64,000 nt of DNA from an uncultured delta proteobacterium (GTDB taxonomy: Bacteria; Desulfobacterota; Binatia; UBA9968). Under the pieces are notes generated by a model. The model was given only the letters and a program-made list of their open reading frames with translations. It was not told the DNA's origin and made no database searches. Location: the NCBI GenBank assembly GCA_963760795.1, contig CAVXEP010000029.1:320001-384000 (forward strand). Reading direction: 5' to 3'. The translations under genes were made by a program, and so were the position numbers. Shown here in pieces: positions 2,124 to 59,920 of this stretch (positions are counted from its first letter, which is position 1; every line of letters begins with the position of its first letter).

Positions 2124-2430
2124 GCGCGAATTCCTCCGGTAGACGGACAATAAGGCGGCCCACTTCGAAATCCGCCAAGGTATCAATTGCCAGTATCCTT
2201 GCGCTCATACGGCTCTCGGTTCTTGGGGCGGATTAATTTAAAAAAGGCCCCGCTGGTCTCGAATTCGGACTTGAGCGTGAACTTGAGAACGATCATTCAG
2301 GAGTTCGAGCCCCGCGATTTTAGGTGTCTCAAAACCCTTTGCGGCAGCGGCAAAATTTTTCGTGCGTTTACGGAGTCAAAGTCATACATCACTCTTAACC
2401 CGCGCAGAACGTAATAAGGTTTGTTTATTG

Positions 2431-3879
2431 ATGAATACAGCAACTGCGAGTGCGGCTGAGCCGGAGTCGATTAGCGAAGATGGCGCAGCGGGAAAAATCC
2501 TGATCGTCGATGATGATCGAAATCTCGTCGAGCTGGTTAAGATGAGACTTCAGGCGGCGAAGTACGAAGTTGTCGCCGCGTTGGACGAAGGGCAAGCGCG
2601 CGCAGCGATCAACGATCATGACTTCGATTTGTCCATCGTCGATCTGAAATTGTCGAATACCAGCGGACTGTCTCTGATGGAGGAATTTCATGGACTGCGC
2701 CCTGAGATGCCGGTAATTATTCTCACGGGATTCGGCAGTATCGAAAATGCCGTCGATGCGATAAAGAAGGGCGCGTACGGTTACCTTACCAAACCTTTCG
2801 ATGGACATGAATTGCTCGTACAAATCAGCTGCGCCTTGGAAACCCGCCGGCTGACGGTGGAGAACCGCCGACTCAAGGGGCTCTTACAGGAGCATTTCGG
2901 CTTTGACAACATTGTCACGCGTAGCGAGAATATGCACCGCGTGCTGGAAACCGTCGCACGAGTGGCAAAAACTGACTCCACTGTTTATATCCATGGACAA
3001 AGCGGCACGGGCAAGGAACTGATCGCCAAAGCGATTCACCTGGAGAGTGTGCGCAAGGACAAACCGTTCGTGGCGATCAACTGTGCCGCCCTGCCCGAGA
3101 CCTTGTTAGAAAGCGAATTGTTCGGCCACGAAAAGGGCTCATTTACCGGCGCCGTGCGCAGCACCAAAGGTTTGTTCAGCCAGGCTCATGAGGGAACGAT
3201 TTTTTTAGATGAAATCGGCGAAATGCCGCTGTCCATCCAAGCAAAACTATTGCGCGTTCTTGAGACGCGGCTTTTTTATCCGATCGGCAGCGATAAGCCG
3301 GTTAAAGTCAATGTCCGGGTGGTGGTGGCAACTAACAAAGATTTGGCGGAGGAAGTTAAGAAGGGGACATTTCGTGAAGATCTATTCTATCGGATTCATG
3401 TGATTCCGATTCGCCTGCCGCCGCTGAAGGAGCGCAAAGAAGATATCCCCTGTTTGATCGACCATTTTTTGAAACGCATTTGCTACCGGAGTAAGAAACC
3501 GGTGAAGACCATAACCCCGCAGGCCCTGCAACGGTTGATGCTCCATGATTGGCCGGGCAACGTGCGCGAGTTGGAAAATACCATTGAATACGGCGTCGTA
3601 ATGGCTCCCGGCGATGTCGTCGGAGAAGATCTTATGCTAGCGGGACAGACGCTCAAAAATGAGGCTGCGCTTCATCGCTCGGAAAGCGAAGCGGCGCCTA
3701 AAAACCTGAAAGAAGCGCGCGCCGCCTTTGAAAAGGCCTACCTGATCGACCTGCTCGAGCAGTGCGACGGTAAAGCCGCACGGGCCGCCGAGATCGCCGG
3801 CAAGTACCGCGCCGACTTCTACGACCTGTTAAAGAAGCACGGTATCAAAATACAAGACTATAAATTCGCCAAGCAGTAG
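2431..3879 (+). CDS. sigma54-dependent response regulator (GlrR/NtrC family)
   Basis: Receiver (ILIVDDD, DLK, YLTKP); AAA+ GQSGTGKE, ESELFGHEKGSFTGA, FLDEIGE, WPGNVRELEN; C-terminal HTH AGKYRADFYDLLKKH. Confidence 0.95.
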   Translation: MNTATASAAEPESISEDGAAGKILIVDDDRNLVELVKMRLQAAKYEVVAALDEGQARAAINDHDFDLSIVDLKLSNTSGLSLMEEFHGLRPEMPVIILTGFGSIENAVDAIKKGAYGYLTKPFDGHELLVQISCALETRRLTVENRRLKGLLQEHFGFDNIVTRSENMHRVLETVARVAKTDSTVYIHGQSGTGKELIAKAIHLESVRKDKPFVAINCAALPETLLESELFGHEKGSFTGAVRSTKGLFSQAHEGTIFLDEIGEMPLSIQAKLLRVLETRLFYPIGSDKPVKVNVRVVVATNKDLAEEVKKGTFREDLFYRIHVIPIRLPPLKERKEDIPCLIDHFLKRICYRSKKPVKTITPQALQRLMLHDWPGNVRELENTIEYGVVMAPGDVVGEDLMLAGQTLKNEAALHRSESEAAPKNLKEARAAFEKAYLIDLLEQCDGKAARAAEIAGKYRADFYDLLKKHGIKIQDYKFAKQ

Positions 3880-8688: not shown

Positions 8689-10101
8689 ATGTCCACGGGA
8701 AAAATTCTCGTCGTCGACGACGACCGCAATCTCCTCGAATTGGTTCGCACCAGGCTCGAAGCAGCCAAGTACGAGGTGGTAACGGCCGTCAAAGGCGAGG
8801 AGGCCAAAGAAGCACTCAACGGTGATAGCATTGATCTCTCCATTGTTGACTTGAAGCTTGCCGGCCAAGACGGCATGTCAATTATGGAGGAATTACATGC
8901 AATCAATCCCGCCCTGCCGGTGATTATTCTCACTGGCTATGGAAGTATCGAAGGCGCCGTAGAGGCCATCAAGAGAGGCGCCTACGGCTATCTTACCAAG
9001 CCCATCGATCCCACGGAGCTGCAATTGCAGATCGGCCGAGCGCTGGAAAATCGCCGGCTTGTCTCTGAGAACGTGCGGCTTAAGGAACTGCTCAAGGAAA
9101 AATACGATTTTACCAATATCGTAGCCAAGAGCGAGGTCATGCAGAAGGTGCTGGCGGGGGTTTCGCGAATCGCCCAGACCGAATCTACGGTCCATATTCA
9201 AGGCGAAAGTGGCACAGGCAAGGAGGTGATCGCCAAGGCTATTCATCTTGCCAGCGAGAGGAAAAATAAGCCCTTCGTGGCGATCAATTGCGCCGCCGTC
9301 CCTGAAGCATTGCTGGAGAGCGAACTGTTCGGTCACGAAAAGGGATCGTTCACCGGCGCGGTGCGCAGCACCAAGGGATATTTTGCGCAGGCTCATCAAG
9401 GCACTATTTTATTAGATGAAATTGGCGATATGCCGATGTCGATCCAACCTAAACTCCTGCGCGCGTTGGAGGAGCGGCAATTTTATCCCATTGGCAGCGA
9501 AAAGCCGATTCAAGTGGATGTCAGGGTTATTGTCGCCACCAAGAAGGATCTTGAAGAAGAAGTACGAAAGGGGCTATTTCGCGAGGATCTCTTCTACCGG
9601 ATTCATGTTATTCCGGTTCGTCTCCCGCCACTGCGGGAACGGAAAGAAGATATCCCACACCTGGTAAGCCATCTGCTGGAGAAAATCGCGCGGCAATCAA
9701 AAAAGGATGTGAAAAGTCTCACACCTCAAGCCATGAAGAAGCTGATGCTGCATGATTGGCCGGGCAATGTTCGCGAGCTCGAAAACACCTTGGAGTACGC
9801 CGTCACGATGGCCGAGGGGGAGGTGGTCACGGAAGAGCTTTTATTCGAAACCAGAGCCCAGACGGCTATCGGAGCGCAGGAGTCCGCTCTCCGATATGAC
9901 TTGCTACCGGTGGATGGCCCGCTCAAATCTCTCAAAGAAGCGCGGGCGGACTTTGAAAAAGCATACCTTGTCCGCTTGCTCCAGCACAGCAGTGGCAGTG
10001 CAGCAAAAGCCGCGGAGATTGCCGGGAAATACCGGGCCGATTTCTATGACCTACTGAAGAAACACGGCATCAATCTCCAAGCGTTTAAAAAGGCGAACTA
10101 G
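8689..10101 (+). CDS. sigma54-dependent response regulator (GlrR/NtrC family), paralog of 2431-3879
   Basis: Receiver + AAA+ (GESGTGKE, GSFTGA, LLDEIGD, WPGNVRELEN) + identical HTH AGKYRADFYDLLKKHG. Confidence 0.95.
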   Translation: MSTGKILVVDDDRNLLELVRTRLEAAKYEVVTAVKGEEAKEALNGDSIDLSIVDLKLAGQDGMSIMEELHAINPALPVIILTGYGSIEGAVEAIKRGAYGYLTKPIDPTELQLQIGRALENRRLVSENVRLKELLKEKYDFTNIVAKSEVMQKVLAGVSRIAQTESTVHIQGESGTGKEVIAKAIHLASERKNKPFVAINCAAVPEALLESELFGHEKGSFTGAVRSTKGYFAQAHQGTILLDEIGDMPMSIQPKLLRALEERQFYPIGSEKPIQVDVRVIVATKKDLEEEVRKGLFREDLFYRIHVIPVRLPPLRERKEDIPHLVSHLLEKIARQSKKDVKSLTPQAMKKLMLHDWPGNVRELENTLEYAVTMAEGEVVTEELLFETRAQTAIGAQESALRYDLLPVDGPLKSLKEARADFEKAYLVRLLQHSSGSAAKAAEIAGKYRADFYDLLKKHGINLQAFKKAN

Positions 10102-20061: not shown

Positions 20062-20200
20062 ACTGGCAGTTGAACTCCGCTTACACCGTACCTAACATCG
20101 CAACTGGCGCGTTAGCAATGCCGTGTAATGACCATCGCGGCTCGTTCGCTGCCCCAGGGATAAGTTGCTTTTTCGCCAGCGTGCGACTAAAGTCGCCGTC

Positions 20201-20653
20201 GTGGCAGAAGTCAAGCGGCCGTTTTTCACCTCTTATAGCACCAGCCTTTGGGTTCGTTTTCTCCGTTTTAGTTTGCGTTCGCACAAGAAGCTTGAGGACG
20301 ACTTGCAAGAATTAGGGCTGACACCGCCGCAATTCTACGTGCTGGCGACCATCGGTTATGCCGGCAGCCTGCCCTTCGGCGAGATCGGCGCGAAAATGTT
20401 GGTGACGGTGAGCAATCTCACCGGCATTGTCGACCGGCTTGAGGGTAAAAAATTCGTCGCGCGCAAGCGTGACGAGAAAGACCGCCGGGTCGTCCATGTG
20501 GTGCTGACCGACAAGGGCGCTAAACTATACAAGAGCACGATTCCGTTATTCGAAAAATGCGTCGGGGAGATTTTCGCCGGGCTGAGCGAGGCCAATCAGA
20601 AACAGCTGTCGGCGCTACTGCGGCAGCTCGATCATGAACCCGTGGCGAAGTGA
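20201..20653 (+). CDS. MarR-family transcriptional regulator
   Basis: GLTPPQFYVL..SNLTGIVDRLE..DRR..LTDKG. Confidence 0.9.
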   Translation: MAEVKRPFFTSYSTSLWVRFLRFSLRSHKKLEDDLQELGLTPPQFYVLATIGYAGSLPFGEIGAKMLVTVSNLTGIVDRLEGKKFVARKRDEKDRRVVHVVLTDKGAKLYKSTIPLFEKCVGEIFAGLSEANQKQLSALLRQLDHEPVAK

Positions 20654-20764: not shown

Positions 20765-20809
20765 TTGACACCGAATATTGGCAAGTTATAACAGTTTAAA
20801 CGTTAACTA
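20765..20809 (+). promoter_or_regulatory. sigma70 promoter with adjacent palindromic operator
   Basis: TTGACA-N16-TATAAC followed by AGTTTA-AACG-TTAACT imperfect palindrome. Confidence 0.7.
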
Positions 20810-20831
20810 ATTTTCCTAGGCGTTAATTTCC

Positions 20832-22047
20832 ATGGCAGACGAAAACAACAAACCGCTGGGACTCGAACGAGTTAAAAAATGGCTTTATGCCAAGGGACTC
20901 GACGAGCGCGGCAGCGGCTGTGTGCTTTGCGGGTCGTGCTATGGCCATGGGCCGGCCAATCCGATGGAGGATGTGCCTGGGCCGAAAGAAAAATGTCCAC
21001 CTTATGAGTACTACAAATTTCAGCGTCACACGCCGAAATCGCGCTGGCTGATGGCGCAGCGGGTGTTTCATGGTCTCGATCCGATCACGCCGGAGCTGAA
21101 AGAGGTGATGTACGCCTGCACAAACTGTCTGATGTGCCAGGAACTCTGCGGCGTGCGCGGCGATGGTTACGGGCCATGGGATATCACGGTGGCGATGCGC
21201 GAGGAAATCACCGAAAAAGACGGTCCATTGCCGGCGCACCGGCCGATTTACGATGGACTCCAACGATATGACAGTCCTTGGGGGCAAACCACGCGCGGCG
21301 CATGGGCCGCTGGCTTGGGACTCAAACAACTCAGCGACGGCAAAGCTTCGACGTTACTATTTGCCGGCTGTTCGGCGGACCGCGCCAGCGGCAAGAGCGG
21401 CGCCATCGCACTGGCCAAGCTGATGCAAAAGGCCGGTGAGGATTTCGCGATACTCGGCGACCGGGAAAAATGCTGCGGACTGTACGCCTTCGATCTCGGT
21501 TTCCGCCGCGAGTACGAGCGTTTAAAAGACGCCAATCTGACGACGTTGACGCATGCAGGAGTCAAGAAAGTCATCATTGCTTGCGGCAGTTGCCAACGCA
21601 TCTGGCGCGAGTACGCCAAAGAAGCGAGCGGCTTTGAAAGTGATGCATGGCGTCGAGTTCGTCGCTCAGGCGGTCAAAGCTGGGCGGCTCAAGTTTATCA
21701 AGCCGATCGCCAAGAAAGTAACTTACCACGATTCTTGTCACCTCGGCCGCGGCTGCGGTATTTACGATCCGCCGCGGCAAATTCTCCGGGCGATTCCTGG
21801 CCTGCAACTGGTCGAGATGGAGCGCAACCGGCGCTGGGCCTGGTGTTGCGGCGGCGGCGGCGGCGTGCCGGAAGCCGATCCCGATTTAGCGCGGTGGAAC
21901 GCGGCGGACCGCATGCGCGAAGCGTGCGCCAGCGGCGCCGAGTTGATGCTGACCTCGAGCGCGCTGTGCCAACGGTCCTTCGGCGAATTGCCCGATGGCG
22001 GGCTGCCGACCGAAGATTTACTCGAATTTATTTTGCCGGCGCTTTAA
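20832..22047 (+). CDS. Fe-S / CCG-domain oxidoreductase (HdrD/GlpC/GlcF-like), +1 frameshift at ~21620
   Basis: CVLCGSC, CTNCLMCQELC, FAGC, EKCCG, CGSC; then YHDSCHLGR, WCCGGGGG in the second frame. Confidence 0.85.
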
Positions 22048-22058
22048 ATTTTTAATTT

Positions 22059-22793
22059 ATGGTCAAAGAACCGCACTTCACACCGCAACGGATGCTCAAT
22101 ATGCTCGGGCTCAAGTCGAACTCGCTGGGTCCCTACGCACTGCTCCCCGGTCCGAAGGAACGCAGTGAGATGATGTTGAAACTTTTGGAGGCGCCGCAAA
22201 AGAGTTTCACTTTCCTCGACTACGAGATGCACACCGGTGGGCTCGACGGCAAGCGCGTCAGCATCGGTAACGGCGGCCGCTACGCGCCGGACACCGCGAT
22301 TACCACCGAAATTCTTTGCGGCGCCGGCGCGGAATCTTTGATCCGTGTCGGCAGCTGCGGCTCGCTGCAAGACCACGTCAAGATCGGCGATCTGGTGATT
22401 GTCACCGGGGCCCTGCGCGGCGACGGCACCTCGCGCTACTACGTCGCTGAGAATTTTTCCACTGTGGCCGACGCGAGTATCGTCGCGGCCTTGACGCGGG
22501 CGGCGGAGGATTTAAAAGTCCGCTATCATCTTGGCTGGATCTTCACCACCGACGCATTGTTTCAAGAGACGCCGGAACTGATCGACCAACTGAACCAGCA
22601 AAACGTCTCGAGCATTGACATGGTGACCTCAGCCTTCTTGACCATCGCGCAGGTGCGCGGCAAAAAAGCCGGCGCGGTGCTGGCGGTGTCGGATGAATGT
22701 CTCTATGGCAAGTTCGGCTTTCGCGATCCGGGGTTTTTCGCAGCCGAGCAGAAGACCATCGAAGTGGCGCGCCAAGCACTCCAATACCTTTAG
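22059..22793 (+). CDS. Nucleoside phosphorylase (PNP/UDP family)
   Basis: LLPG..ER, LIRVGSCGSL, GDLVI..RGDGTS, TTDALF, DMVTSA, LAVSD. Confidence 0.9.
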   Translation: MVKEPHFTPQRMLNMLGLKSNSLGPYALLPGPKERSEMMLKLLEAPQKSFTFLDYEMHTGGLDGKRVSIGNGGRYAPDTAITTEILCGAGAESLIRVGSCGSLQDHVKIGDLVIVTGALRGDGTSRYYVAENFSTVADASIVAALTRAAEDLKVRYHLGWIFTTDALFQETPELIDQLNQQNVSSIDMVTSAFLTIAQVRGKKAGAVLAVSDECLYGKFGFRDPGFFAAEQKTIEVARQALQYL

Positions 22794-22819
22794 CCATCTC
22801 TTTTCATTGAGCTAAGAAA

Positions 22820-24337
22820 ATGAGCGTCGTCCAAAGTCCGCTGTTTGAACCGGTTCTCTGGCACGATGGCGGCTTCAAAATTCTCGATGAGATCCAAGTC
22901 CCGCAAAAACTCGAGTACATTGAAGTGACAGAGGTCGCCCAGGCGCTCGATGCCGTGCGCGAAATGAAGACCCGCGCCTTCGGCCAGGTGCTGACCTTTC
23001 TCTACAGCAATGCGCTGGTGGCGCAGCAATACCCGGGCGATGACCCGGCGCCGCTGCGCCTGCGGTTGGCGCAGTTAACCCAGCAATTTTGCGACGTCCG
23101 TCCGACCTTCGATTTTCGCAGTCTCGGCGGTTTCGTCGCTGAGTTTTTCGACAAGTTACCGGCTAATGGCCCAGTTGGCGAAACCATCGCGCGCCAGGCG
23201 CGCGAGTTCGGCGGGCAAATCACCCGGGCGCGCAGCGCCCGCGCTAAACGCACCGCCGCGATCCTGCCCAATCCGGCGCGGGTGTTGACTCATTGTAACA
23301 TCAGCGGCGAGTTGGTCGCGGTGGCGGCTTACTGCAAGGAGCTCGGCAAAGAGTTCTCCGTCATCGCCACCGAAACCCGGCCCTACTTGCAGGGCGCGCG
23401 GCTGACCGCCTGGGAGTTGGCTCAAGCTGGCGTGAAAGTTTCTTTGATCCCCGACTGCGCGGTGGCGCAGGTGATGGCCCAGGGCGAAGTCAACGCGGTG
23501 ATCGTCGGCGCCGACCGGGTGGCGCAAAACGGCGATGTCATCAACAAAGTCGGCACCTACCCCATCGCGCGCATGGCCAAAGTGTACGGCGTGCCGTTTC
23601 ACGCGCTGGTGCAAGATCCGCGTTCGCTCGCGCGCGGCGCCGATGTGGCCATCGAGGAGCGGCCGGCCGAGGAACTATTAGTCTATCATGGCCGCTCATT
23701 GGTCGCCGGCGAGCAAGCGCATCTCAAAGTGCGCTATCCATCGTTCGATCTGACGCCGCAGGAGTTTATCACCAACTATGTCGGCCTGGACGGTCTTTAC
23801 ACACCGGAAACCTTTCGGCTGAAATACCAGGCGGGAGCCGCGGTTGATGCGAGGGTGCCGCGCGCCGGCGCAAAATATTTGCTGATCTACGGCGTGCCGC
23901 CGCCGAGCCAATACGCTTTTTTGCTGAGCGCGTTGAAGGCGGAAAGAGCTGAGAGCTTCTTGGTTCCCGAAATGCGCCCGGAGCTGTGGGGCGCGCGCGT
24001 GATCGTAGCAGAATTGCTCAAGCGCAATGCCCCGACCACGGTGATTTCCGACAACATGATGGGCACGTTGTTCGCGCAGGGTGAGATTGGCAAGCTATGC
24101 TTTTTCTATGACAGTTTGGCGGCCGCGGGACCGCAGGGGATTTGCGGTTCGCTCTTGGCGGTGCAGCTGGCGCATTTGCATGGTGTCCCCATCGAGCTGT
24201 TTAGCGGCGAGAGCCGCAAAGAATCGACTCATGATAGCGATGTGACGACCTTTCTCGGCGAGCCGATTTGTCCGGCCGGCGTCGCGGTACGAGCCGTTGC
24301 GTCGGAAGTGGTGCCCTGGGGTTTATTCAAAAATTAG
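22820..24337 (+). CDS. MtnA-like ribose-1-phosphate isomerase with extra C-terminal eIF2B-like domain
   Basis: RPT, LTHCN, ETRPYLQGARLTAWEL, VGADRVAQNGDVINKVGTY, IEERP; degenerate second copy EMRPELWGAR..VISDN. Confidence 0.85.
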   Translation: MSVVQSPLFEPVLWHDGGFKILDEIQVPQKLEYIEVTEVAQALDAVREMKTRAFGQVLTFLYSNALVAQQYPGDDPAPLRLRLAQLTQQFCDVRPTFDFRSLGGFVAEFFDKLPANGPVGETIARQAREFGGQITRARSARAKRTAAILPNPARVLTHCNISGELVAVAAYCKELGKEFSVIATETRPYLQGARLTAWELAQAGVKVSLIPDCAVAQVMAQGEVNAVIVGADRVAQNGDVINKVGTYPIARMAKVYGVPFHALVQDPRSLARGADVAIEERPAEELLVYHGRSLVAGEQAHLKVRYPSFDLTPQEFITNYVGLDGLYTPETFRLKYQAGAAVDARVPRAGAKYLLIYGVPPPSQYAFLLSALKAERAESFLVPEMRPELWGARVIVAELLKRNAPTTVISDNMMGTLFAQGEIGKLCFFYDSLAAAGPQGICGSLLAVQLAHLHGVPIELFSGESRKESTHDSDVTTFLGEPICPAGVAVRAVASEVVPWGLFKN

Positions 24338-24350
24338 CTAAGATTTACCT

Positions 24351-25343
24351 GTGGCTAAAATTGACAGTGAAATAATACGCTGGGGCGAGCGGCTCTTCGA
24401 GCGCCGGCTGATCAGCGGCTGGGGCGGCAATCTGAGTTGCCGTGTCGGAGAAAACGATTTCCTCATCACCGGCCAGCATGCGCCGCTCGGTTTCTTAACG
24501 ACGAAAGATTTGGTGCGTATCGACGCCGACGGCAAACCGGTCAAGAAAAGCCAGCGCGCTTCGAGTGAAACGCCGATGCATTTGGCGGTCTACGCCGGCA
24601 CCGACGCTCAGGCGATCGTCCATGTGCACCCGCCGATGGTGCTGGCGTTCTCGTTGTCGCACGACAGCTTCGCGCCGCTCAGCTATGAGGAGAAGTACAC
24701 CATCGGCAAGGTGCCGGTGATTCCCCAGGACACGCCGACGGTGACCAAACCGCAAGCGGTGGTCGAGGCGCTTAAATATAATCCGGTCGCGATCATCAAA
24801 GGCCATGGCACGGTGGCGATCGGCAAAACTTTTCAAGAAGCGTTTCTTTACACCGACCTGCTCGAAGAAGCGGTGCATTGCCAATTCTTCCAAAGCGGCA
24901 TCGCCGGGGAACATAAACCGAATGGGCAAACTGATGCGCCGGTCGCGGCCGCCGCAGTGGGGAAAGTGTATGAGCTGTTCTCGCACGATCATATGGCCGC
25001 CCTGGTCGACAGTGCCAACGGCGACGGTGACTGTCGCCAGTTTGGCGGCGATACCAATCTGACGACATCGCTGACCTTGCACATGGAAGATAGCGATGCG
25101 GCGTGGACGGTGCAGTTCATTGCCGGCGAGATTACCGCGTTAACCGATAAATCCGACGGCGATTTTCTCATCAGCGGCAAGGCCGAATGGTGGCGCGCGG
25201 TGTTCAGCAATAAGATCGATGCATTTTTAGCGACGCAGCAGGGTAAATTGAAACTCAAACGAGGCGAACTGGCGCAGTTGTCGCGCTGGTACAAACCATT
25301 TCAGAGGGCATTTGCGCTATGGCAAACCATACCGATTCACTAG
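24351..25343 (+). CDS. Class II aldolase fused to SCP2-like lipid-binding domain
   Basis: GGNLS, SSETPMH, VHVHP, KGHG; C-terminus LFS....DFLISG..WW.AVF..IDAFLATQQGKLKLKRG. Confidence 0.8.
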   Translation: MAKIDSEIIRWGERLFERRLISGWGGNLSCRVGENDFLITGQHAPLGFLTTKDLVRIDADGKPVKKSQRASSETPMHLAVYAGTDAQAIVHVHPPMVLAFSLSHDSFAPLSYEEKYTIGKVPVIPQDTPTVTKPQAVVEALKYNPVAIIKGHGTVAIGKTFQEAFLYTDLLEEAVHCQFFQSGIAGEHKPNGQTDAPVAAAAVGKVYELFSHDHMAALVDSANGDGDCRQFGGDTNLTTSLTLHMEDSDAAWTVQFIAGEITALTDKSDGDFLISGKAEWWRAVFSNKIDAFLATQQGKLKLKRGELAQLSRWYKPFQRAFALWQTIPIH

Positions 25344-26848
25344 GTTTTTACGCCGCTGAAGTTTTACAGCGGACGGCGGCGCGCCAACCGGACAAGACCG
25401 CGATCATCGCCAAGGAAGAGGAGCTGACTTTCGCCGCGCTCAATCAGCGCGTGCAAGCGCTGGCCGGCCACTTGATCGCAGACGGCATCCGCCAGGGCGA
25501 TCGGGTCGGCGTGCTGCTGCCGAACTCCACGGCGATACCGCTCGCTTATTATTCAACCCAGAAGATCGGCGCCGTGACCGTGATCCTCGACGCGCGCTTG
25601 AAGGGCAAAGAGCTAGAAGGCGTGTTGCAGGACGCCGATTTGAAACTGTTGGTGGTGCACCAGACGCTTTATTCGGAGGTCGAAGAGATTTTTAAATCTA
25701 TCGCGCCGATACCGGTCTGGATCGCCGGTGGCACGGGCCAGCGCAGTTTCGAGCAACGTTTGAGCGCGGCCGCCGCGGTGACGGGCTTGCCCAACTTTAA
25801 CCCTGACGACGATGCCTTGATACTTTACACCTCGGGCACCACGGGTGAGCCGAAAGGCGTGGTGCTGACCTATCGCAATCTGCTGCAGTATCCCAAGGTG
25901 ATGGGCGCCATGAACGTCTGCGATGCCACGACGATACGCGGCTGCGTGTTGCCGATGTCGCATATCGTCGGTCCGGTGGTATGTAACGAGTTGGCGGAAA
26001 AGGGTTACACGCTGGTGATCTTCGACCAGATCAATCCAGTTACCTTACTCGAAGGCATTCAAAAATACCGGGTCAATGTTTTCGAAAGCGTGCCCATCGT
26101 GTTTCAGCTTTTGCTCGGCGTGAAAAACTTGGCTAGCTACGACACCAGCAGCATGAAGATCGCCGCGATGATGGGCACGAGCATTCCGATGCCGCTGTTG
26201 CGCGCGTTCCAAACCGCCCAGCCGCATATCAAAGTCATCCAAGGTTACGGTCTGACGGAAACTTCGCCGATGATCACGCTGGTCGAGCCGGGAAAAGCGG
26301 AAGCCAAGATGGGCAGCATCGGCCGCGCCGTACCAGGCGTAGAAGTGAAGATCGTCGATGACAACGACAACGAGGTTCCCATGGGCGAAGCCGGCGAGAT
26401 CATCACCCGCGGCCCCCATGTCATGAAAGGCTACTTTCGCCGCGTCGATGCGACGGCAGAACGCATCCGCAACGGCTGGCTCTACACCGGCGATGTCGGC
26501 AAGGTCGAAGCGGATGGCTACTACTATCATCTCGGCCGGCGCGACGACATGATCATCACCGGCGGTTTGAACGTCTATCCCGCCGAAGTGGAGAATCTGA
26601 TTTACACCTATCCTGGCGTGCAGGAGACCATCGTCTTCGCCATCCCCGATGCCAAGCGCGGCCAAGTGATCGGCGCCGCGATTGTACCGCGGCCGGGCGC
26701 GACGGTGGTCGAAAAAGAGCTGCTGAGTTTTCTGCGCGCCAACCTGGCCAATTTCAAAGCGCCCGACCAGATCGTTATCCGCGAGTCGCTGCCGCGCACC
26801 TCGTCGGGCAAGACGATCCGCGATGCGGCGACGCTGCTGGGGAACTAG
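25319..26848 (+). CDS. AMP-forming acyl-CoA synthetase (long-chain fatty acid-CoA ligase-like)
   Basis: YTSGTTGEPKG, GYGLTE, TGDVG, GRRDDMIITGGLNVYPAEVE, LPRTSSGK. Confidence 0.92.
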   Translation: MANHTDSLGFYAAEVLQRTAARQPDKTAIIAKEEELTFAALNQRVQALAGHLIADGIRQGDRVGVLLPNSTAIPLAYYSTQKIGAVTVILDARLKGKELEGVLQDADLKLLVVHQTLYSEVEEIFKSIAPIPVWIAGGTGQRSFEQRLSAAAAVTGLPNFNPDDDALILYTSGTTGEPKGVVLTYRNLLQYPKVMGAMNVCDATTIRGCVLPMSHIVGPVVCNELAEKGYTLVIFDQINPVTLLEGIQKYRVNVFESVPIVFQLLLGVKNLASYDTSSMKIAAMMGTSIPMPLLRAFQTAQPHIKVIQGYGLTETSPMITLVEPGKAEAKMGSIGRAVPGVEVKIVDDNDNEVPMGEAGEIITRGPHVMKGYFRRVDATAERIRNGWLYTGDVGKVEADGYYYHLGRRDDMIITGGLNVYPAEVENLIYTYPGVQETIVFAIPDAKRGQVIGAAIVPRPGATVVEKELLSFLRANLANFKAPDQIVIRESLPRTSSGKTIRDAATLLGN

Positions 26849-27468: not shown

Positions 27469-28188
27469 ATGACAACGTGGCCACCACCGCCCGCTGAACT
27501 TCCGCCGCTCCATCGCACTGTCCATGTTTGGGCGGTGCCGTTAAATGACGCGCGCGTCGATCTCGACAGCGGGCGGGAGCTACTCTCGCCGGACGAGCGC
27601 GAACGCGCGGCGCGCTTTCACTTCGAGCAGCACCGGCGGCGCTATCTGATTGCCCATATCGCCCTGCAGCGGATTCTCAGCCGCTATTTACAGATTGACC
27701 CGGCGCAACTGTCCTTTGAACTTGGCAGTAACGGCAAGCCCAAGTTACCAGCGGCACTGGGCTCTAGTGGCATTGAGTTCAATCTCTCCCATTCCAACGA
27801 AATGGCTTTGCTCGCAGTCAACCTCATCGGTGAGGTCGGCGTCGACATCGAGTACATCAAACCCGACTTCAAGTTCGAGGAAATCGCCAAGGAATTTTTC
27901 ACGGCAAGAGAAGTCGTCGCGCTGCTCGGACTTCCATCCGAGCTGCAGCGCCAAGCGTTTTTCAAATGTTGGACCTGTAAAGAGGCCTTTCTCAAAGCTA
28001 AGGGCACCGGGCTGTCGGGCAAGCTGGATGAGGTGGAAATCACTCTTGGCGCTGCGGATCAAGTGCGGATCGGCGCAGATGTGCCGGGTTGGTCGCTCAC
28101 CGAATTGAATTCCATTGACGCTTACCAAGCCGCGCTCGTGGTCGCCGGCTCCTCGGTACCCATCCGTTACTATCTCTGGCAGCCGTAA
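27469..28188 (+). CDS. Sfp/HetI-type 4'-phosphopantetheinyl transferase
   Basis: LSPDERERAARF, GKP, FNLSHS, VGVDIE, WTCKEAFLKAKGTGL. Confidence 0.93.
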   Translation: MTTWPPPPAELPPLHRTVHVWAVPLNDARVDLDSGRELLSPDERERAARFHFEQHRRRYLIAHIALQRILSRYLQIDPAQLSFELGSNGKPKLPAALGSSGIEFNLSHSNEMALLAVNLIGEVGVDIEYIKPDFKFEEIAKEFFTAREVVALLGLPSELQRQAFFKCWTCKEAFLKAKGTGLSGKLDEVEITLGAADQVRIGADVPGWSLTELNSIDAYQAALVVAGSSVPIRYYLWQP

Positions 28189-28527: not shown

Positions 28528-29421
28528 TCAAGATTCCACGACCACGAATCTGGCGAACGCCGGCTGAAAATCGAAAGCCAACTTGCCTCTCTCGCCGCCA
28601 CGATTTTTGACGATGTGCAGCGTCAGTGATTGATTGGGTTCGGTGAGCTTTTCGGTTCTTGCTAGATCTTTCTCCATGACCATGATGACATCGGCGCTGG
28701 CTACTTTGTCGGCCCATGCATGCGGCTGGGTTTGATTGGTGGAGCTGACATCCGGCCAGATTACGAGCAGGGGTAGTTTCAAATTCACGGCAAGTTCTTG
28801 CAGTTGTTCGACAATGATGGGCATGCGCACATCCAGGGATTCATTGGCGTCGCCAAGACGCTGGCAGTCATCGATGACGACGAACGGCGGGCCGTCGATT
28901 TGGCGAATCTGGGTTTCGATTTTTTTCAGCGTCGTACTGCGATCACACTCCACTAAGTAGATTTGATCGAGCCAGCTCTTCGCTTCTTCAGCGCAGCGTC
29001 GGAGTTTTTCCCAGCTCGGCGCGAGCTCATCGGCGCTGGCATGGTGCGCTTTGGGCACGCCGTACCAGTGCAGGAGATATGCGCTGCCGCGCCTGATCTC
29101 GCGATTTTCCATGGCACTCAAGCGCGCGAACGTTTTGATACGCAGTTCGATTACACTATCGCTGAAGCTGAAAAAGATCCCCGGTTGATGGTTACGTTGG
29201 GCCACTTGGTCGAGCAGTTGTTTGGCAAAGCTGGTTTTGCCGCAGGCGGGCGCGCCGATGAGCAAGTAAAGGCCGGGCAGGATGCCGTCGAGGGCGCGAT
29301 TGAGATTGGCGAAGCCGGTTTGCCAACCGCTGATCTCTTTTACCTGGCTTTGTCGCTCAAGGGCGTCGAGTGTCTCGGCGAGCTGTTCACCTTCGGAGCG
29401 TAGTGGGGATTGGTCGGCCAT
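28528..29421 (-). CDS. DnaB-like helicase C-terminal (RecA-fold) domain protein
   Basis: GWQTGFANLNRALDGI, Walker A GAPACGKT, VVIDD, ADVIM, IVKNRGGERG; no DnaB N-terminal domain. Confidence 0.8.
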   Translation of the reverse strand: MADQSPLRSEGEQLAETLDALERQSQVKEISGWQTGFANLNRALDGILPGLYLLIGAPACGKTSFAKQLLDQVAQRNHQPGIFFSFSDSVIELRIKTFARLSAMENREIRRGSAYLLHWYGVPKAHHASADELAPSWEKLRRCAEEAKSWLDQIYLVECDRSTTLKKIETQIRQIDGPPFVVIDDCQRLGDANESLDVRMPIIVEQLQELAVNLKLPLLVIWPDVSSTNQTQPHAWADKVASADVIMVMEKDLARTEKLTEPNQSLTLHIVKNRGGERGKLAFDFQPAFARFVVVES

Positions 29422-29555
29422 GGGTTTGCGTCGGAGCTTAGCGAGTTTGCCTGGGTCGAGCAAGGCACATATTTCCATTGACAGCCTCGGGCTTTCCGTT
29501 TAAGCCTTGGCCATTCCCAGCATCGATCGGATCGGAGCCAAGGAGGTTTGCGGCC

Positions 29556-30173
29556 ATGAAGGATGAAAACACAGGCAAAGTCTCACGCCGAGCGTTTCTC
29601 AAAGGCCTCGGTGGCGGCGCCATCGGCACGGCGGTGATTTCCACCGGATTGATTAAAGCTGATCCAGCTGAAGCCTACTCGCCTGAGAGCTCGGGCGGAG
29701 TTGGTATGAGGAAAACGCTCAATCTCAAGGTCAACGGCAAGAGCTACAAAGTAGAAGTCGAGCATCGCAACACGCTGGCTGAAGTGTTGCGTGATCAGCT
29801 CGGGCTCACCGGCACCAAGATCGGTTGCGACCGCGGCGAGTGCGGCGCCTGCACGGTGATCATCGGCGGGCGCAATATGTATTCGTGCAGCCAACTGGCG
29901 GTGTGGATGGAGGGGAAAGAGATTCTCACCATTGAAGGATTAGCCAAGGGCGACAAGCTCGATCCCTTGCAAGAAGCGTTTATCGAACATGACGGACCGC
30001 AGTGCGGCTTCTGCACTTCGGGACAGATCATGTCGGGCAAGGCGTTGCTGATGAAGAACGCGAAACCCAACGAAACACAGGCGCGCCGCGGCTTGTCGGG
30101 GAATCTCTGCCGCTGCGGCAACTACAATCGCGAGGTCGCGGCGGTTTTAGCCGTGGCGGCTAAGGCGCGCTAG
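29556..30173 (+). CDS. Tat-exported 2x[2Fe-2S] subunit (PaoA/YagT-like)
   Basis: SRRAFLK twin-Arg signal; GCDRGECGACT, QCGFCT, GNLCRC; AGGAGG RBS. Confidence 0.92.
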   Translation: MKDENTGKVSRRAFLKGLGGGAIGTAVISTGLIKADPAEAYSPESSGGVGMRKTLNLKVNGKSYKVEVEHRNTLAEVLRDQLGLTGTKIGCDRGECGACTVIIGGRNMYSCSQLAVWMEGKEILTIEGLAKGDKLDPLQEAFIEHDGPQCGFCTSGQIMSGKALLMKNAKPNETQARRGLSGNLCRCGNYNREVAAVLAVAAKAR

Positions 30174-30180
30174 GAGGGCG

Positions 30181-32400
30181 ATGGCGATGGCACAGGCACA
30201 AAAAGAATATTCCATTGTCGGCAAGAGAATCACCCGCATCGACGCCTATGAGCGCGTTACGGGTCAGGCGCAGTACACCGGTGATATCCAACTCCCTGGC
30301 ATGCTCTACGCGCGCGTCCTGCGTAGCCCGCATCCGCACGCGCGAATTCTTAGCATCGATACCTCAAAGGCCGAGAAACTGCCGGGCGTAAAAGCGATCG
30401 TTCATCACGAAAACGCTAAGGTGCCGTGGTCGAGCGGCGGACATACGCACCAGCGCTTTATCTTCAACAACCCAGTACGCTTCGTCGGTGACCCGGTGGC
30501 TGCGGTGGCGGCCACCGACCGCCACATCGCCGAGGATGCGTTGAAATTGATCGAGGTGAAGTACGAAAAACTTCCCCATGTGCTCGATCCCAACGAAGCG
30601 TTAAAGCCCGACGCGCCCAAGATCGCGCCGCAGGGCAACCTATCGGTGGGCAAAGGCAGTTTCAGCGCGCCAATTGAAGAGACTTGGGGCGACGTTGAAC
30701 AAGGTTTTAAGGAAGCCGATCGGGTCTTTGAAGATACTTACATTACCAAACATGTAAATAATGCCCAGATGGAACGGCGGGTGAGCGTAGCCAAATGGGA
30801 CGCCGGCAAGCTCACCGTATTCGCTTCGACCCAGGGTGTCTCCAACGCGCGCACCGACATCGCCAAGGATTTCAATCTGCCGCTGAGCAAAGTACGGATC
30901 GTCTGCAAGTACATGGGCGGTGGCTTCGGCAACAAGAATCAGGCGCAAGATTACGACTACATGGCGGCGGTATTGGCCAAGGCTGCCGGTCAGCCGGTGA
31001 AGTTGGAATTTACCCGCGAAGACGACTACATCGGCATGCATGGCCGCTGGTCATCGGAGCAACGCTACAAGATCGGCGTCAAGAAAGACGGCACGATTAC
31101 CGCCGTGTCGCTCGACGCCGTCACCAACATGGGCGCTTACCGCAAGCAGAGCGGCAATCTGAGCGGCACGGATTTCTACCAGATTCCCAATTTCCGCAAA
31201 CACATCAAACCGGTGCACACCAACACCGTGGTTGCAGCGAACTACCGGGCGCCGGCGTATCCGCAATCGGTGTTCGGCTTCGCGTCGTTCTTGGATCAGA
31301 TCGCCCATGAGATGGGTATCAATCCCGTCGATATGTTCATGCGTAACCGGATTCAAAAATACAAGAGCAAGATTCCCTTCACTTCGAACTATCTCGAGCA
31401 GTGCATTATCGAGGGTTCCAAGCAGGTAGGCTGGCAGGAGAAGTGGCATAAAGCCGGCGCAATGGGAGGACAGAAAAAACATGGCATCGGCATGGCGCTC
31501 GGCGGCTATCCGTTCCGCCCCGGACTTGGCGCGGCGACAATCCGCCTCAACCCCGACGGCACCGCGCATGTACTGGTCGGCGTCACCGATATCGGCACGG
31601 GTGCCAAGTCGACGATGGCGATCATCGCCGCGGAGGCTTTAGGCATTCCTCTCAACCAGATTCAGCTAACCAACGGCGACACTGACGTGACGCCTTACTC
31701 AGTCGGTGAGTCGGGCAGTCGCACCACGCCATTCACCGGCCCGGCGGTGATCGCTGCGGCGGAAGATGTGCGGCGGCAAATTTTCAATCTCGCCGCTGGG
31801 CAATTGAAAGTGAAGGCGGAGGAACTGGACCTACGCAACAGTGAAGTGTTCGTGAAGGCGGATCCAGCGCAAAAGCTGCCGCTGGATCGGATCGCTTCAC
31901 GGGCCGGCGAAATCATCGGCCGGGCGACGACCAATCCGTCGTTCAAGGATGTTGAAGGTAAAAGCTTCTCGGCGCATTTCGCCGAGGTGGAAGTGGATGC
32001 AATCACCGGGCATGTGAAAATTACCCGCTACGTGGCGGCGCATGACTCCGGCACGATCATCAATCGCTTGCCCGCCGAAAGCCAGATCAAAGGCGGCGTT
32101 ACCCAGGGTATCGGCATGGCGTTTAGCGAAGAGCTGATTATAGACAAACTGACCGGCATCCCGGTCAACCCCAATTATCGTGACGCCAAGGTGCCGACGC
32201 ACCTTGAGGTGCCGGAGGTCGAAGTTATTTTCATCGAACATGCTGACCCCTTCGGTCCGTTCGGCGGCAAAGTGGTCGGTGAACCGCCGATCACGTCGGC
32301 GGTGGCGACGATCGCCAACGCGATCTTTAACGCCACCGGCAAACGGATCAAAGAGTTGCCGATCACGCCGGATAAAATCTTGCAGGCGCGCCTGGTCTGA
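30181..32400 (+). CDS. Xanthine dehydrogenase/aldehyde oxidoreductase family Mo-binding subunit
   Basis: RSPHPHARI, MGGGFGNK, YRAP, DIGTG, SGSR, QIKGG..QGIG, VGEPP. Confidence 0.95.
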   Translation: MAMAQAQKEYSIVGKRITRIDAYERVTGQAQYTGDIQLPGMLYARVLRSPHPHARILSIDTSKAEKLPGVKAIVHHENAKVPWSSGGHTHQRFIFNNPVRFVGDPVAAVAATDRHIAEDALKLIEVKYEKLPHVLDPNEALKPDAPKIAPQGNLSVGKGSFSAPIEETWGDVEQGFKEADRVFEDTYITKHVNNAQMERRVSVAKWDAGKLTVFASTQGVSNARTDIAKDFNLPLSKVRIVCKYMGGGFGNKNQAQDYDYMAAVLAKAAGQPVKLEFTREDDYIGMHGRWSSEQRYKIGVKKDGTITAVSLDAVTNMGAYRKQSGNLSGTDFYQIPNFRKHIKPVHTNTVVAANYRAPAYPQSVFGFASFLDQIAHEMGINPVDMFMRNRIQKYKSKIPFTSNYLEQCIIEGSKQVGWQEKWHKAGAMGGQKKHGIGMALGGYPFRPGLGAATIRLNPDGTAHVLVGVTDIGTGAKSTMAIIAAEALGIPLNQIQLTNGDTDVTPYSVGESGSRTTPFTGPAVIAAAEDVRRQIFNLAAGQLKVKAEELDLRNSEVFVKADPAQKLPLDRIASRAGEIIGRATTNPSFKDVEGKSFSAHFAEVEVDAITGHVKITRYVAAHDSGTIINRLPAESQIKGGVTQGIGMAFSEELIIDKLTGIPVNPNYRDAKVPTHLEVPEVEVIFIEHADPFGPFGGKVVGEPPITSAVATIANAIFNATGKRIKELPITPDKILQARLV

Positions 32401-32412
32401 GGGAGAAACGCC

Positions 32413-33396
32413 ATGAAGTCATTCGAAAACATCGATGCAAAAAGCGTAAAAGAAGCGGTCGGGCTGCTGCAGAAATTTAACCAGCAGAAAAAGCTCGCGG
32501 CGGTGGTCGGCGGCGGCAGCGAATACTTGCAGCTGATGAAGGACCACGTCGTCGAGCCGGACTACGTGATCAACTTAAAGACCATTCCCGGCCTCGACTA
32601 CATTCGCGAGGAGCGCGGCGGCTTTCGCATCGGCGCCCTGGTGAAGTTGGCCGATATCGAGGAGCACGGGGCGGTTCGCGAGAAGCTTTTGATTCTGGCC
32701 GACGCCGCCGGCGACGCGGCATCGCCGCAGATTCGTAACGCCGGCACCATCGCCGGCAATATTTGCCAGCGGCCGTTCTGCTGGTATTTTCGTTCGTCCA
32801 ATTTCACCTGTCTGCGTAAAGGCGGACAGCTCTGTTACACCGTCACAGGCGACGGCCGCTTCCATGCAATCCTCGGCGCTGGGCCAAGTTATATCGTGCA
32901 CCCGTCCGATACCGCACCGGCGTTGGTGGCGCTCGGCGCGCAGATCAAGATCGTCGGACCCGCGGGCGAGAAAACTATGCCGCTGGAAAAGTTTTTCGTT
33001 CTACCGTCGGTGGATTATAGACGTGAGAATATTCTCAACCCCGGCGAAATCGTCACGGAGATTTTCGTGCCGACGCCCAAAGCTGGCAGCAAGGGTTTTC
33101 ACCACAAAGTGCGCGAACGCTTGGCTTGGGACCATGCCATCGTCGCCGTCGACACCATCGTCGAAGGTAGCGGCGGCGTGGTGCGACATGCCAGTGTGGT
33201 CATGGGCGGGGTCGCGCCGATTCCCTGGCGCGCGCAGAAGGCCGAGGAGTTTCTCCGCGGTAAACGGCTCGACGAAGCGACGGCTAAACAAGCCGGCGAG
33301 ATCGCTCTCGAAGGCGCCAAGCCGCTCAAAGATAACGTCTACAAAATCAAATTGGCCCAGGAACTAATTCAGCGAGGACTGCTGGCTTCGATCTAG
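32413..33396 (+). CDS. FAD-binding subunit with [4Fe-4S] insert (PaoB/YagS-like)
   Basis: GGGSE, ASPQIRNAGTIAGNICQRPFCWYFR..C..C, HPSD. Confidence 0.92.
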   Translation: MKSFENIDAKSVKEAVGLLQKFNQQKKLAAVVGGGSEYLQLMKDHVVEPDYVINLKTIPGLDYIREERGGFRIGALVKLADIEEHGAVREKLLILADAAGDAASPQIRNAGTIAGNICQRPFCWYFRSSNFTCLRKGGQLCYTVTGDGRFHAILGAGPSYIVHPSDTAPALVALGAQIKIVGPAGEKTMPLEKFFVLPSVDYRRENILNPGEIVTEIFVPTPKAGSKGFHHKVRERLAWDHAIVAVDTIVEGSGGVVRHASVVMGGVAPIPWRAQKAEEFLRGKRLDEATAKQAGEIALEGAKPLKDNVYKIKLAQELIQRGLLASI

Positions 33397-59209: not shown

Positions 59210-59920
59210 ATGGCTGAATTAACTGAACTCAAAAAGAAGCTGGCGATGTCGTCGCGCATGCTGTTTAACTCCGGGCTGGTCGATTACAGTGGGCATGTCA
59301 GCGTGCGCGTCCCCGGCTCCGATCACTTGCTAATTTTGCCGCATCCGGTGAGCCGCGCGACCGTTAAACCTGACGATATGGTGGTCACCGACTTTGACGG
59401 CAAAGTGATCGAAGGCAACTACAAAGCGCCGTCGGAAGTTTTTATGCACGCGCGCGCCTACAAAGCGCGCAGCGACATCCAGAGCGTGGCCCATCTGCAC
59501 AATCACATGGTGGCGACGCTGAGCATGGTCGATAAGCCATTTTATCCAGCTTCGTCCAATCCCGGCGCTTTCTTCGGTCCCGGCGCGTTGCCCAAGTACA
59601 TGGACCCGGCGCTGATTCATACCATTGAGCAGGGCGATGCCGTGGCCAAGGCGCTCGGCAAGGGCGATGCCTTGATGCTACGCGGCCATGGGTCAATGGT
59701 GGTAGCTCAATCGATCGAGTGGGTATTTGCCGCCTGCGTCGATCTCGAGGAAGCGGCGGCGCGCTTCTACAAGGCTGCGCTGCTGGGGCCGGTGCTGGTT
59801 TACAACGAAGATGAAACCCAGCGGGTCATGAAAGGCCGGCGCAAGGACTCGGTTGTGCAAAAAGTTTGGGATCACAACGTGGCTAAGACTAAATTAGTCG
59901 GACTCTTGAACGGCATCTAA
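59210..59920 (+). CDS. Class II aldolase/adducin family protein
   Basis: SGHVSVR, PSEVFMH, AHLH, LRGHG. Confidence 0.88.
   Translation: MAELTELKKKLAMSSRMLFNSGLVDYSGHVSVRVPGSDHLLILPHPVSRATVKPDDMVVTDFDGKVIEGNYKAPSEVFMHARAYKARSDIQSVAHLHNHMVATLSMVDKPFYPASSNPGAFFGPGALPKYMDPALIHTIEQGDAVAKALGKGDALMLRGHGSMVVAQSIEWVFAACVDLEEAAARFYKAALLGPVLVYNEDETQRVMKGRRKDSVVQKVWDHNVAKTKLVGLLNGI

Follow-up and report, generated by a model that had tools for sequence, protein, structure and literature searches.

The stretch of DNA analysed here, 64,000 nucleotides (nt) in length and hereafter called the window, comes from the genome of an uncultured delta proteobacterium (G000, 89% complete) and carries, between positions 20765 and 26848, an operon of five genes. 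These encode a CCG/Fe-S protein resembling HdrD, TfrB, and GlpC, with a 4Fe-4S dicluster domain, two CCG domains, and a frameshift in this copy (20832..22047); a nucleoside phosphorylase of the PNP_UDP_1 family, which belongs to a divergent group of the hexameric (DeoD/Udp-like) type (22059..22793; PF01048, 113.5 bits); a sugar-phosphate isomerase of the MtnA/IF-2B family with 505 amino acids (22820..24337); a class II (metal-dependent) aldolase of 330 amino acids fused to an SCP2 domain (24351..25343; PF00596, 141 bits); and an AMP-forming ligase (acyl-CoA or acyl-carrier) that resembles FadD and feruloyl-CoA synthetase (25319..26848). A first-pass annotation had placed the five genes behind a single promoter, and all of them were found in place on the + strand. 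The intergenic gaps are 11, 26, and 13 nt, and the aldolase and ligase genes overlap by 25 nt.

Relatives of the operon were collected by two scans. A scan of species-representative genomes gave 46 near loci, labelled as Binatia or "delta proteobacterium" metagenome-assembled genomes with a few other submitter labels, in which the aldolase is 60-88% identical; counts for these refer to the loci with enough flank. A metagenome scan with a 5-sequence alignment of distant fused aldolases gave 80 loci, of which L134 was of the near type and was left out, and counts for the distant loci are over those of the other 79 that have enough flank. The phosphorylase, isomerase, SCP2-fused aldolase, and ligase of the distant loci are orthologous to those of the operon at 30-45% identity.

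The predicted sigma-70 promoter held up. The sigma-70-like element TTGACA-16 nt-TATAAC, read from the sequence, occupies 20765..20792 on the + strand, with the -35 hexamer at 20765-20770 and the -10 hexamer at 20787-20792. An alignment of 14 related intergenic regions shows both hexamers in 13 of them, while the remaining spacer is unalignable, and since they are conserved where the spacer otherwise diverges, the promoter appears real beyond chance. A consensus promoter scan missed TATAAC because its rule demands T as the last base of the -10 hexamer, which is C here. Directly 3' of the -10 hexamer lies the inverted repeat GTTTAAACGTTAAC (20794..20807, +), and its pattern, GTTwA...TTAAC, is kept in the alignment of the 14 regions. 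Upstream and co-directional is a gene for a MarR-family regulator, a candidate repressor of the operon (20165..20653, +; PF01047, E 3e-16), which stands 5' of the operon in 35/35 near loci and also in the sister-family locus L145. We therefore take the element to be a true promoter with a candidate MarR operator next to it; the regulator probably keeps the operon repressed as long as no ligand, an acid or an acyl-CoA, is present.

Enzymes encoded by the operon

The phosphorylase scored under every NCBIfam cut-off. Its best match was the uridine phosphorylase model (137 bits against 280), the MTAP model was not among its NCBIfam matches, and the HpnG model TIGR03468 gave 27 bits against a cut-off of 187. 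The protein is nearest to hexameric uridine/purine nucleoside phosphorylases and to the MTAP of Sulfolobus. Alignments with PDB entries showed that it does not have the uridine-phosphorylase-specific segment and that its alignment extends as far as the "...VSD" motif found in DeoD-type enzymes. Arg35, Arg96, and Asp212 are invariant in 82/82 members of its family, and in all 82 the canonical E-M-E motif has become D-M-V. We take the E-M-E motif to contact the ribose hydroxyls and the Asp, here Asp212, to mark purine enzymes; the phosphorylase is probably purine-specific.

The isomerase scored 219.9 bits with TIGR00512, of which the cut-off is 279. The catalytic Cys and Asp are kept in 89/89 sequences, one of which is the MtnA encoded elsewhere in the genome. 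Immediately behind the Cys, 88/88 members of the isomerase family lack a 7-residue loop that this MtnA has; the same gap appeared in the PDB alignment. Following the MtnA-like part (residues 1-335), the C-terminal part (about 340-505) is a degenerate copy of the IF-2B Rossmann half and matches the MtnA paralog. In distant loci this half-domain is a separate open reading frame (ORF) of about 155 amino acids with a match to PF01008.

Canonical counterparts of both enzymes are encoded elsewhere in the genome: an MTAP on contig C32 (321.7 bits against a cut-off of 274.85) and an MtnA of 343 amino acids on contig C27 (443.5 bits against 279). Because of these separate genes, and because the operon copies fall below the cut-offs and carry active-site changes throughout their families, the phosphorylase and isomerase of the operon are, as far as sequence can tell, divergent second copies and not the housekeeping salvage route.

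In the aldolase, His91, His93, His152, and Glu73 are invariant in 25/25 fused relatives, so that the metal-binding His triad and the catalytic Glu are present. An AlphaFold model of the fused protein (pLDDT 92.6) was used for structural comparison. Residues 1-189 of the model match fuculose-1-phosphate aldolase 2fk5 (Z 27.2), and the fold of the aldolase domain (residues 1-185) resembles those of FucA and of the 5-deoxyribulose-1-phosphate aldolase DrdA (6btd: Foldseek E 1.6e-12, target TM 0.82). For the C-terminal part, the Pfam SCP2 match in the window protein was sub-threshold (E 8.8e-4, 20.0 bits against a cut-off of 21.3). Residues 207-328 of the model, on the other hand, match the Thermus SCP2 protein 2cx7 with a Z of 17.9 and a root-mean-square deviation of 1.7 Å over 120 aligned residues, and further SCP2 entries (Z 8-10) and UbiJ-SCP2 (Z 6.9) were also matched. 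Foldseek with the whole model gave matches to the aldolase domain alone, and the SCP2 match came from an all-against-all VIA search. Pfam SCP2 was found in 21/25 fused relatives, and a search of 1.84 billion cluster representatives returned about 23 clusters of full-length fused aldolase-SCP2 proteins, in which the fusion is kept at 24-46% identity. The SCP2-like domain of the first-pass annotation is thus confirmed as a fold in the predicted structure, and as the domain is real, the hydrophobic 5' substituent that had been deduced from it is a fair supposition. As separate observations, the window contains a further stand-alone class II aldolase of 236 amino acids (59210-59920, +), and with the aldolase as query the whole genome gave 17 matches, an unusual abundance of paralogs.

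The ligase has the AMP-binding domain (PF00501, 283 bits) and the C-terminal domain (PF13193, 64.7 bits) of the ANL superfamily, and it scored 425.6 bits with PRK06187 (cut-off 476). Its best solved relatives are feruloyl-CoA synthetase, FadD13, and FadD5, which describes a generic FadD/feruloyl/MenE-like ANL enzyme; the PDB and NCBIfam matches mix fatty, aromatic, oxalate, and malonate ligases, and the specificity is unreadable from them.

The first gene of the operon differs from the others in its state and in its distribution. Its ORF of 407 amino acids leaves the correct frame after about residue 266: the Fer4_8 domain and the first CCG domain are read in frame 1 and the second CCG domain in the +1 frame (21628-22047), the gene being broken at about 21633-21635, where a run of T contains one extra base. 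Both halves share one frame in 34/35 related loci, and an intact ortholog (L009:4482-5693) has 404 amino acids with Fer4_8 and two CCG stretches. The operon was also compared with sequencing runs, in the form of contigs from four runs. X1 and X7 are DNA runs of two separate studies, and their contigs are one base shorter at 21632/21633, so that the frame is restored; contigs of run X3 span the site and agree with the window. The frameshift reflects either genuine strain variation or an error in the homopolymer. Named equivalogs scored far under their cut-offs for the CCG protein (best TfrB, 137 bits against 385). The gene is present in 37/38 near loci, the exception being L041, and it was not found in L041, in the sister-family genome G242, or in any of the 79 distant loci. 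The CCG gene is therefore a lineage-specific addition limited to one family, and its earlier description as a syntenic part of the pathway fails outside that family. That the protein passes electrons for some redox step is suggested only.

Distribution of the module and the radical SAM partner

In the near loci, the isomerase (42/42), the phosphorylase (40/40), and the ligase (40/40) were all found. Since flanking genes for an unrelated DD-carboxypeptidase and an MBL-fold protein are conserved almost equally in these loci, synteny within the near lineage proves little alone. In the distant loci, the isomerase was found in 41/41, the phosphorylase in 36/36, and the ligase in 21/21; an aldehyde dehydrogenase gene lies directly 3' of the aldolase gene in 38/38, and a gene for a B12-binding radical S-adenosylmethionine (SAM) enzyme is adjacent in 24/30. 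The genes are usually arranged as PadR, ligase, phosphorylase, isomerase, small IF-2B protein, aldolase-SCP2, and aldehyde dehydrogenase, followed by the B12 radical SAM enzyme, a small ORF, a PanE/ApbA-like reductase, often DUF4440, two FabF-like ketosynthases, and a carrier protein. In a sub-lineage (L125, L137, and L138), the phosphorylase, isomerase, aldolase, and dehydrogenase genes come in this sequence and the ligase gene lies further downstream. Among the proteins of G000, the distant ligase matched the ligase of the operon best, at 272 bits, with the runner-up at 242 bits. The tie of the ligase to the trio of phosphorylase, isomerase, and aldolase thus extends over 40/40 near and 21/21 distant loci and two different gene orders; of the five-gene synteny that had been proposed, the ligase stays and the CCG gene drops out. 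Likewise, the proposal that the released aldehyde is oxidised before its activation is probably right, because the dehydrogenase is constant in the distant loci; of the candidates that had been named as the oxidant, the CCG gene is limited to one family and the PaoABC-like genes are variable neighbours. The window form differs from the distant form: it stands alone under MarR, has the CCG gene and no dehydrogenase, carries the isomerase fused to the half-domain, and has its radical SAM gene on another contig.

A class sample of 201 genomes, including G000, contained 18 genomes with an aldolase match and 183 without. The fused aldolase was found in 12/13 other genomes of the window's own family. 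In a sister family, G242 (locus L145) has the MarR regulator, the phosphorylase, a fused isomerase of 502 amino acids, an aldolase of 197 amino acids that does not have SCP2, and the ligase. In a third family, the short aldolase alone is kept in 4/11 genomes; at L144 (9116-11850) and L146 (8519-9882) it lies with an apparently decaying phosphorylase gene beside a gene for an AddA-type helicase, a DDE transposase gene stands between the two in L144, and neither locus has the isomerase or the ligase. The module has thus been gained, trimmed, and lost among families, and SCP2 is droppable.

The B12 radical SAM protein of the distant cluster has one strong homolog in G000, at C17:84401-85912, with 37% identity over the full length and with B12-binding and Radical_SAM domains. 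This gene is on a different contig from the operon and hence unlinked to it. In the class sample, the radical SAM family was found in 12/13 other genomes of the window's family, in G242, in 0/11 genomes of the family with the decayed module, and in no further family. Counted over all 201 genomes, 13 had both genes, G206 had the aldolase only, and G370 (87% complete) had the radical SAM gene only. In a phylum sample of 200 other genomes, 9 had the distant-type fused aldolase, 8 of these also had the radical SAM gene, and 2 had the radical SAM gene alone. Contrasts within families (G242 against G308, and G126 against G013) agree with the co-occurrence. From this co-occurrence and from the adjacency in the distant loci, there is good evidence that the module and one B12 radical SAM family belong to one process, and the fallback offered in the first-pass annotation, other radical-SAM adducts, gains support. 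Against named families, the best scores of the radical SAM protein were with BchE, a P-methyltransferase family, and HpnJ, all far under the cut-off. The gene is followed (G000:C17:79000-86000; L143 5107-11139) by genes for an SDR protein, an FAD_binding_4 protein resembling GlcD/GlcE, and a protein in which a heme-oxygenase-like iron enzyme is fused to an O-methyltransferase. These neighbours are kept in one close relative, L150; L151 and L152 do not keep them, and L149 stops too soon to be scored.

Thirteen studies contributed runs from soil, bog, and mine drainage in which near-identical DNA was present. Contigs of the metatranscriptome run X16, with 92-99% likeness, cover 18/30 operon bins, which is a weak hint of expression, as DNA carry-over is possible and the uncovered bins carry no meaning.

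Downstream of the operon on the + strand is a gene for an Sfp/HetI-type phosphopantetheinyl transferase (27469..28188; PF01648 and PF22624; NF042922, 220 bits against a cut-off of 370), which is present there in 22/32 near loci; a functional tie to the operon is uncertain. Between it and the PaoA gene sits a gene on the - strand (28528..29478) for a DnaB_C/KaiC-like P-loop ATPase of 316 amino acids that does not have the helicase N-terminal part and is kept in several related loci. It is followed by genes for the three complete subunits of a PaoA/PaoC/PaoB-type molybdenum hydroxylase (29478..33396, +), with 2Fe-2S, molybdopterin, and FAD (32413-33396) subunits. The PaoA-like 2Fe-2S subunit has a weak start resembling a twin-arginine translocation (TAT) signal (23 bits against a cut-off of 48), and the enzyme is probably a periplasmic aldehyde or heterocycle oxidoreductase. 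With this weak TAT-like start and a position downstream of the operon in 11/46 near loci, the PaoABC-like genes are unlikely to be the aldehyde-oxidising partner. No ketosynthase, carrier protein, or radical SAM gene was found among the 59 window ORFs scanned. Near the start of the window, two genes for sigma-54-dependent response regulators (2362-3879 and 8689-10101, +) lie less than 8 kb apart.

Proposed reactions and competing explanations

We tentatively favour the reading that the substrate of the module is a hydrophobic, radical-SAM-linked purine nucleoside with a 5' substituent, which the module cuts down to dihydroxyacetone phosphate (DHAP) and an acyl-CoA; its reactions, substrate, and direction are what we infer from the gene content, catalytic residues, folds, synteny, and co-occurrence described above. 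In this scheme, the phosphorylase would free the base and leave a 5-substituted ribose 1-phosphate, the MtnA-like isomerase would convert this to the ribulose 1-phosphate form, and the metal-dependent aldolase would split the C3-C4 bond to give DHAP and an aldehyde, X-CH2-CHO. The aldehyde would subsequently become an acid, by means of the aldehyde dehydrogenase in the distant relatives, and the ligase would form the thioester. X would be hydrophobic and held by the SCP2 domain, and the nucleoside would be made or modified by the co-occurring B12-binding radical SAM enzyme. As a net effect, the adenosyl unit would be trimmed to a two-carbon carboxymethyl extension. That a hydrophobic X is installed with radical SAM help is modelled on the synthesis of adenosylhopane and aminofutalosine; HpnH and MqnE, the two radical SAM enzymes known to join an adenosyl radical to an acceptor carbon, are described in the accessible text of PMC13459092. 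MarR control and the lack of a ketosynthase gene in the window fit either a catabolic or a small-regulon role. It is possible, and still rather doubtful, that the B12 radical SAM enzyme adenosylates or remodels a hydrophobic acceptor and the module strips the product to a carboxymethyl acyl-CoA with release of adenine and DHAP, which would be a novel means of lengthening or functionalising lipids and polyketide starters by two carbons of SAM, and that this takes place in a stand-alone MarR-controlled regulon in Binatia-type soil bacteria and within ketosynthase clusters in distant lineages.

Several points weigh against the trimming of a hydrophobic adduct. The operon has no aldehyde dehydrogenase gene, and the oxidation step has no assigned enzyme here. 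The ortholog in G242 keeps the module and has lost SCP2, so the domain is dispensable at least in that genome, where the other module genes persist without it. The aldolase family also includes dehydratases and decarboxylases (the MtnB model gave 66.9 bits), and cleavage by the operon enzyme is read from its context. The acceptor of the ligase could be a carrier protein instead of CoA. In addition, kin are not independent, and the co-occurrence counts rest on few gains and losses. Finally, because its best scores are with BchE, P-methyltransferases, and HpnJ and its B12 domain is unlike HpnH and MqnE, neither of which, to our knowledge, has such a domain, the radical SAM partner may be a methylase or cyclase that acts elsewhere in the same pathway.

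The first-pass annotation had favoured adenosylhopane as the substrate, to be catabolised to a C32 hopanoic acyl-CoA. The chemistry would be right in principle, as the lipid that HpnH forms carries its adenosyl group through C5' and loses the adenine by the action of a PNP homolog (accessible part of PMC13459092); SCP2 domains bind sterol-like lipids, and uptake of exogenous hopanoids is conceivable, though nothing points to it. However, neither the squalene-hopene cyclase model TIGR01507 nor the HpnH model TIGR03470 had a match over its cut-off in G000. The cyclase gene, shc, was over the cut-off in 6/61 genomes of the order, all in the window's own family, and in only 3 of the 13 other module holders present in both samples (G215, G316, and G356); co-occurrence with shc, and with hpnH in G000, is thus not supported. 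Moreover, the phosphorylase is not HpnG by its score, and the module tracks the B12 radical SAM family, not hopanoid genes. We therefore drop adenosylhopane as the favoured substrate and regard this route as highly improbable, while the outline of phosphorolysis, isomerisation, aldol cleavage, oxidation, and CoA activation stands. It is conceivable, if not probable, that the module instead disposes of SAM by-products, converting 5'-deoxyadenosine (or 5'-methylthioadenosine) to DHAP and acetaldehyde (or methylthioacetaldehyde) and then to acetyl-CoA (or methylthioacetyl-CoA). This would match the known action of the DHAP shunt, or Drd pathway, as given in the available portions of PMC6079011, PMC10986504, and PMC12632272. 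Each radical SAM turnover gives 5'-deoxyadenosine, the module adjoins and co-occurs with a radical SAM gene, and G242 manages without SCP2. Yet the genome is already equipped with bona fide genes for MTAP and MtnA, an SCP2 domain kept over deep divergence has no role for acetaldehyde, the ligase is of the fatty-acid/aromatic-acid type and not of the acetyl-CoA synthetase type, and of the many radical SAM enzymes that such genomes encode, a single family is linked to the module.

Two further explanations seem unlikely to us. The B12 radical SAM enzyme might modify the nucleoside itself, for example by C-methylation at C5', so that the module delivers an unusual short branched or 2-hydroxy acyl-CoA building block. 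B12 radical SAM enzymes such as OxsB, GenK, and Fom3 act on nucleotides or hydroxylated carbons, B12-dependent methyltransferases are among the best matches of the partner, the distant module is embedded with two ketosynthases, a carrier protein, and a reductase, and the phosphopantetheinyl transferase gene often stands 3' of the near operons. This explanation nevertheless leaves the SCP2 domain unexplained; the window has no ketosynthase or carrier protein gene, and the scores with named methylase families are far under the cut-off. In general purine nucleoside catabolism, ribose 1-phosphate would pass through ribulose 1-phosphate to DHAP and glycolaldehyde, which would then be oxidised and activated. 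Such a route has some standing because no phosphopentomutase DeoB was found in the genome at its 89% completeness; the operon enzyme is, apart from MTAP, the only PNP_UDP_1 phosphorylase found there, and the haloarchaeal ribulose-1-phosphate aldolase model matches the aldolase weakly (71 bits against a cut-off of 300). The low probability that we give it reflects the co-occurrence with one radical SAM family, which it leaves unexplained, the ribose-binding E-M-E motif altered in 82/82 family members, and the SCP2 domain and fatty-acid-type ligase, which are unsuited to glycolate; the lack of a match in 183/201 class genomes would also be odd for a core pathway.

Relation to known pathways and significance

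The closest known three-step relative, by analogy, is the DHAP shunt/Drd pathway (MtnP or MtnN+MtnK/DrdK, MtnA/DrdI, and Ald2/DrdA), in which the formation of a pentose 1-phosphate is followed by 1-phosphate aldose-ketose isomerisation and class II aldol cleavage to DHAP and an aldehyde; the available text of PMC6079011 shows the same three superfamilies in the same logical order as in the operon. The likeness of the trio to this shunt, which had been pointed out in the first-pass annotation, is borne out by the shared superfamilies, the fold of the aldolase, which matches DrdA (6btd/6btg), and the kept catalytic residues of the aldolase. The differences are that the phosphorylase is DeoD/Udp-like and not of the MTAP clade, although an enzyme of the same superfamily makes the step plausible; that the isomerase lacks the 7-residue active-site loop and has an extra half-domain; that the aldolase is fused to SCP2 and the ligase, in distant loci together with the aldehyde dehydrogenase, is a fixed extra; and that the host genome retains separate canonical MTAP and MtnA genes.

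As a five-step analogue, the fluoroacetate route of Streptomyces cattleya and Nocardia brasiliensis appears to be the closest. It comprises FlA, the phosphorylase FlB, an isomerase for 5-fluoro-5-deoxyribose 1-phosphate (5-FDRP), an aldolase, and fluoroacetaldehyde dehydrogenase (accessible text of PMC3999930 and PMC6079011). There, a substituted acetate arises from a 5'-substituted 5'-deoxyadenosine in successive steps of phosphorolysis, isomerisation, aldol cleavage, and aldehyde oxidation, as described in the part of PMC3999930 that was available. The known route differs from the module in having neither a ligase nor an SCP2 domain. No fluorinase was linked to the module: PF01887 (SAM_HAT) had no match in the window, and the only match in G000 is on contig C29 at 92.5 kb, about 250 kb away. 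This family is common, being found in 8/14 control genomes. The SAM_HAT gene (DUF62, SAM hydroxide adenosyltransferase/halogenase family) at G000:C29:92524-92963 matches in two pieces lying in different frames or ORFs, and may be a second frameshifted gene of this assembly. At L125 (5511-6228), a crcB fluoride channel gene and a DUF190 gene are immediately 5' of the phosphorylase gene. The idea of a link to fluoride that this pair raises was set aside, as the annotated ORFs of L125 include no SAM_HAT and the SAM_HAT gene of G000 is distant.

In the hopanoid (HpnH, HpnG) and futalosine (MqnE) pathways, a radical SAM enzyme joins the C5' of the adenosyl group to a hydrophobic or aromatic acceptor and an enzyme of the PNP family removes the base (accessible text of PMC13459092), which is a precedent for adenosylation by a radical SAM enzyme followed by base removal. 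The module departs from these pathways in that its phosphorylase is not HpnG, most of its holders have no hopanoid genes, and its partner radical SAM enzyme has a B12 domain. The hopanoid pathway keeps the ribose, which the module would cleave by isomerase and aldolase. The futalosine pathway cyclises the ribose part, unlike the cleavage proposed here.

A search of full-text literature, with subscription journals mostly outside its coverage, yielded papers on the DHAP shunt and on hopanoids and no description of the module, and the Binatota abstracts that were returned contained no mention of it. New here are an operon that stands alone under MarR control, an isomerase joined to its half-domain in one chain, and a CCG gene where the distant loci have the dehydrogenase, together with the SCP2-less and decayed forms of the sister families and a radical SAM partner that co-occurs even when it is unlinked.

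If the module merely disposes of SAM by-products, it would be a modest variant of a known salvage route. If, instead, our preferred reading of a trimmed hydrophobic adduct is true, SAM would be the donor of a two-carbon acid unit through adenosylation and trimming of the DHAP-shunt type, a logic, biosynthetic or degradative, undescribed in the searchable literature. The stand-alone operon indicates that the four-enzyme module occurs apart from the ketosynthase cluster and is tied to a single radical SAM family though unlinked from it, and as a compact, regulator-equipped unit it offers an expressible means to find the substrate. The host bacteria are common in soils, and because near-identical DNA recurs in soil, bog, and mine-drainage runs, the product of the module may be an abundant environmental lipid or acid.

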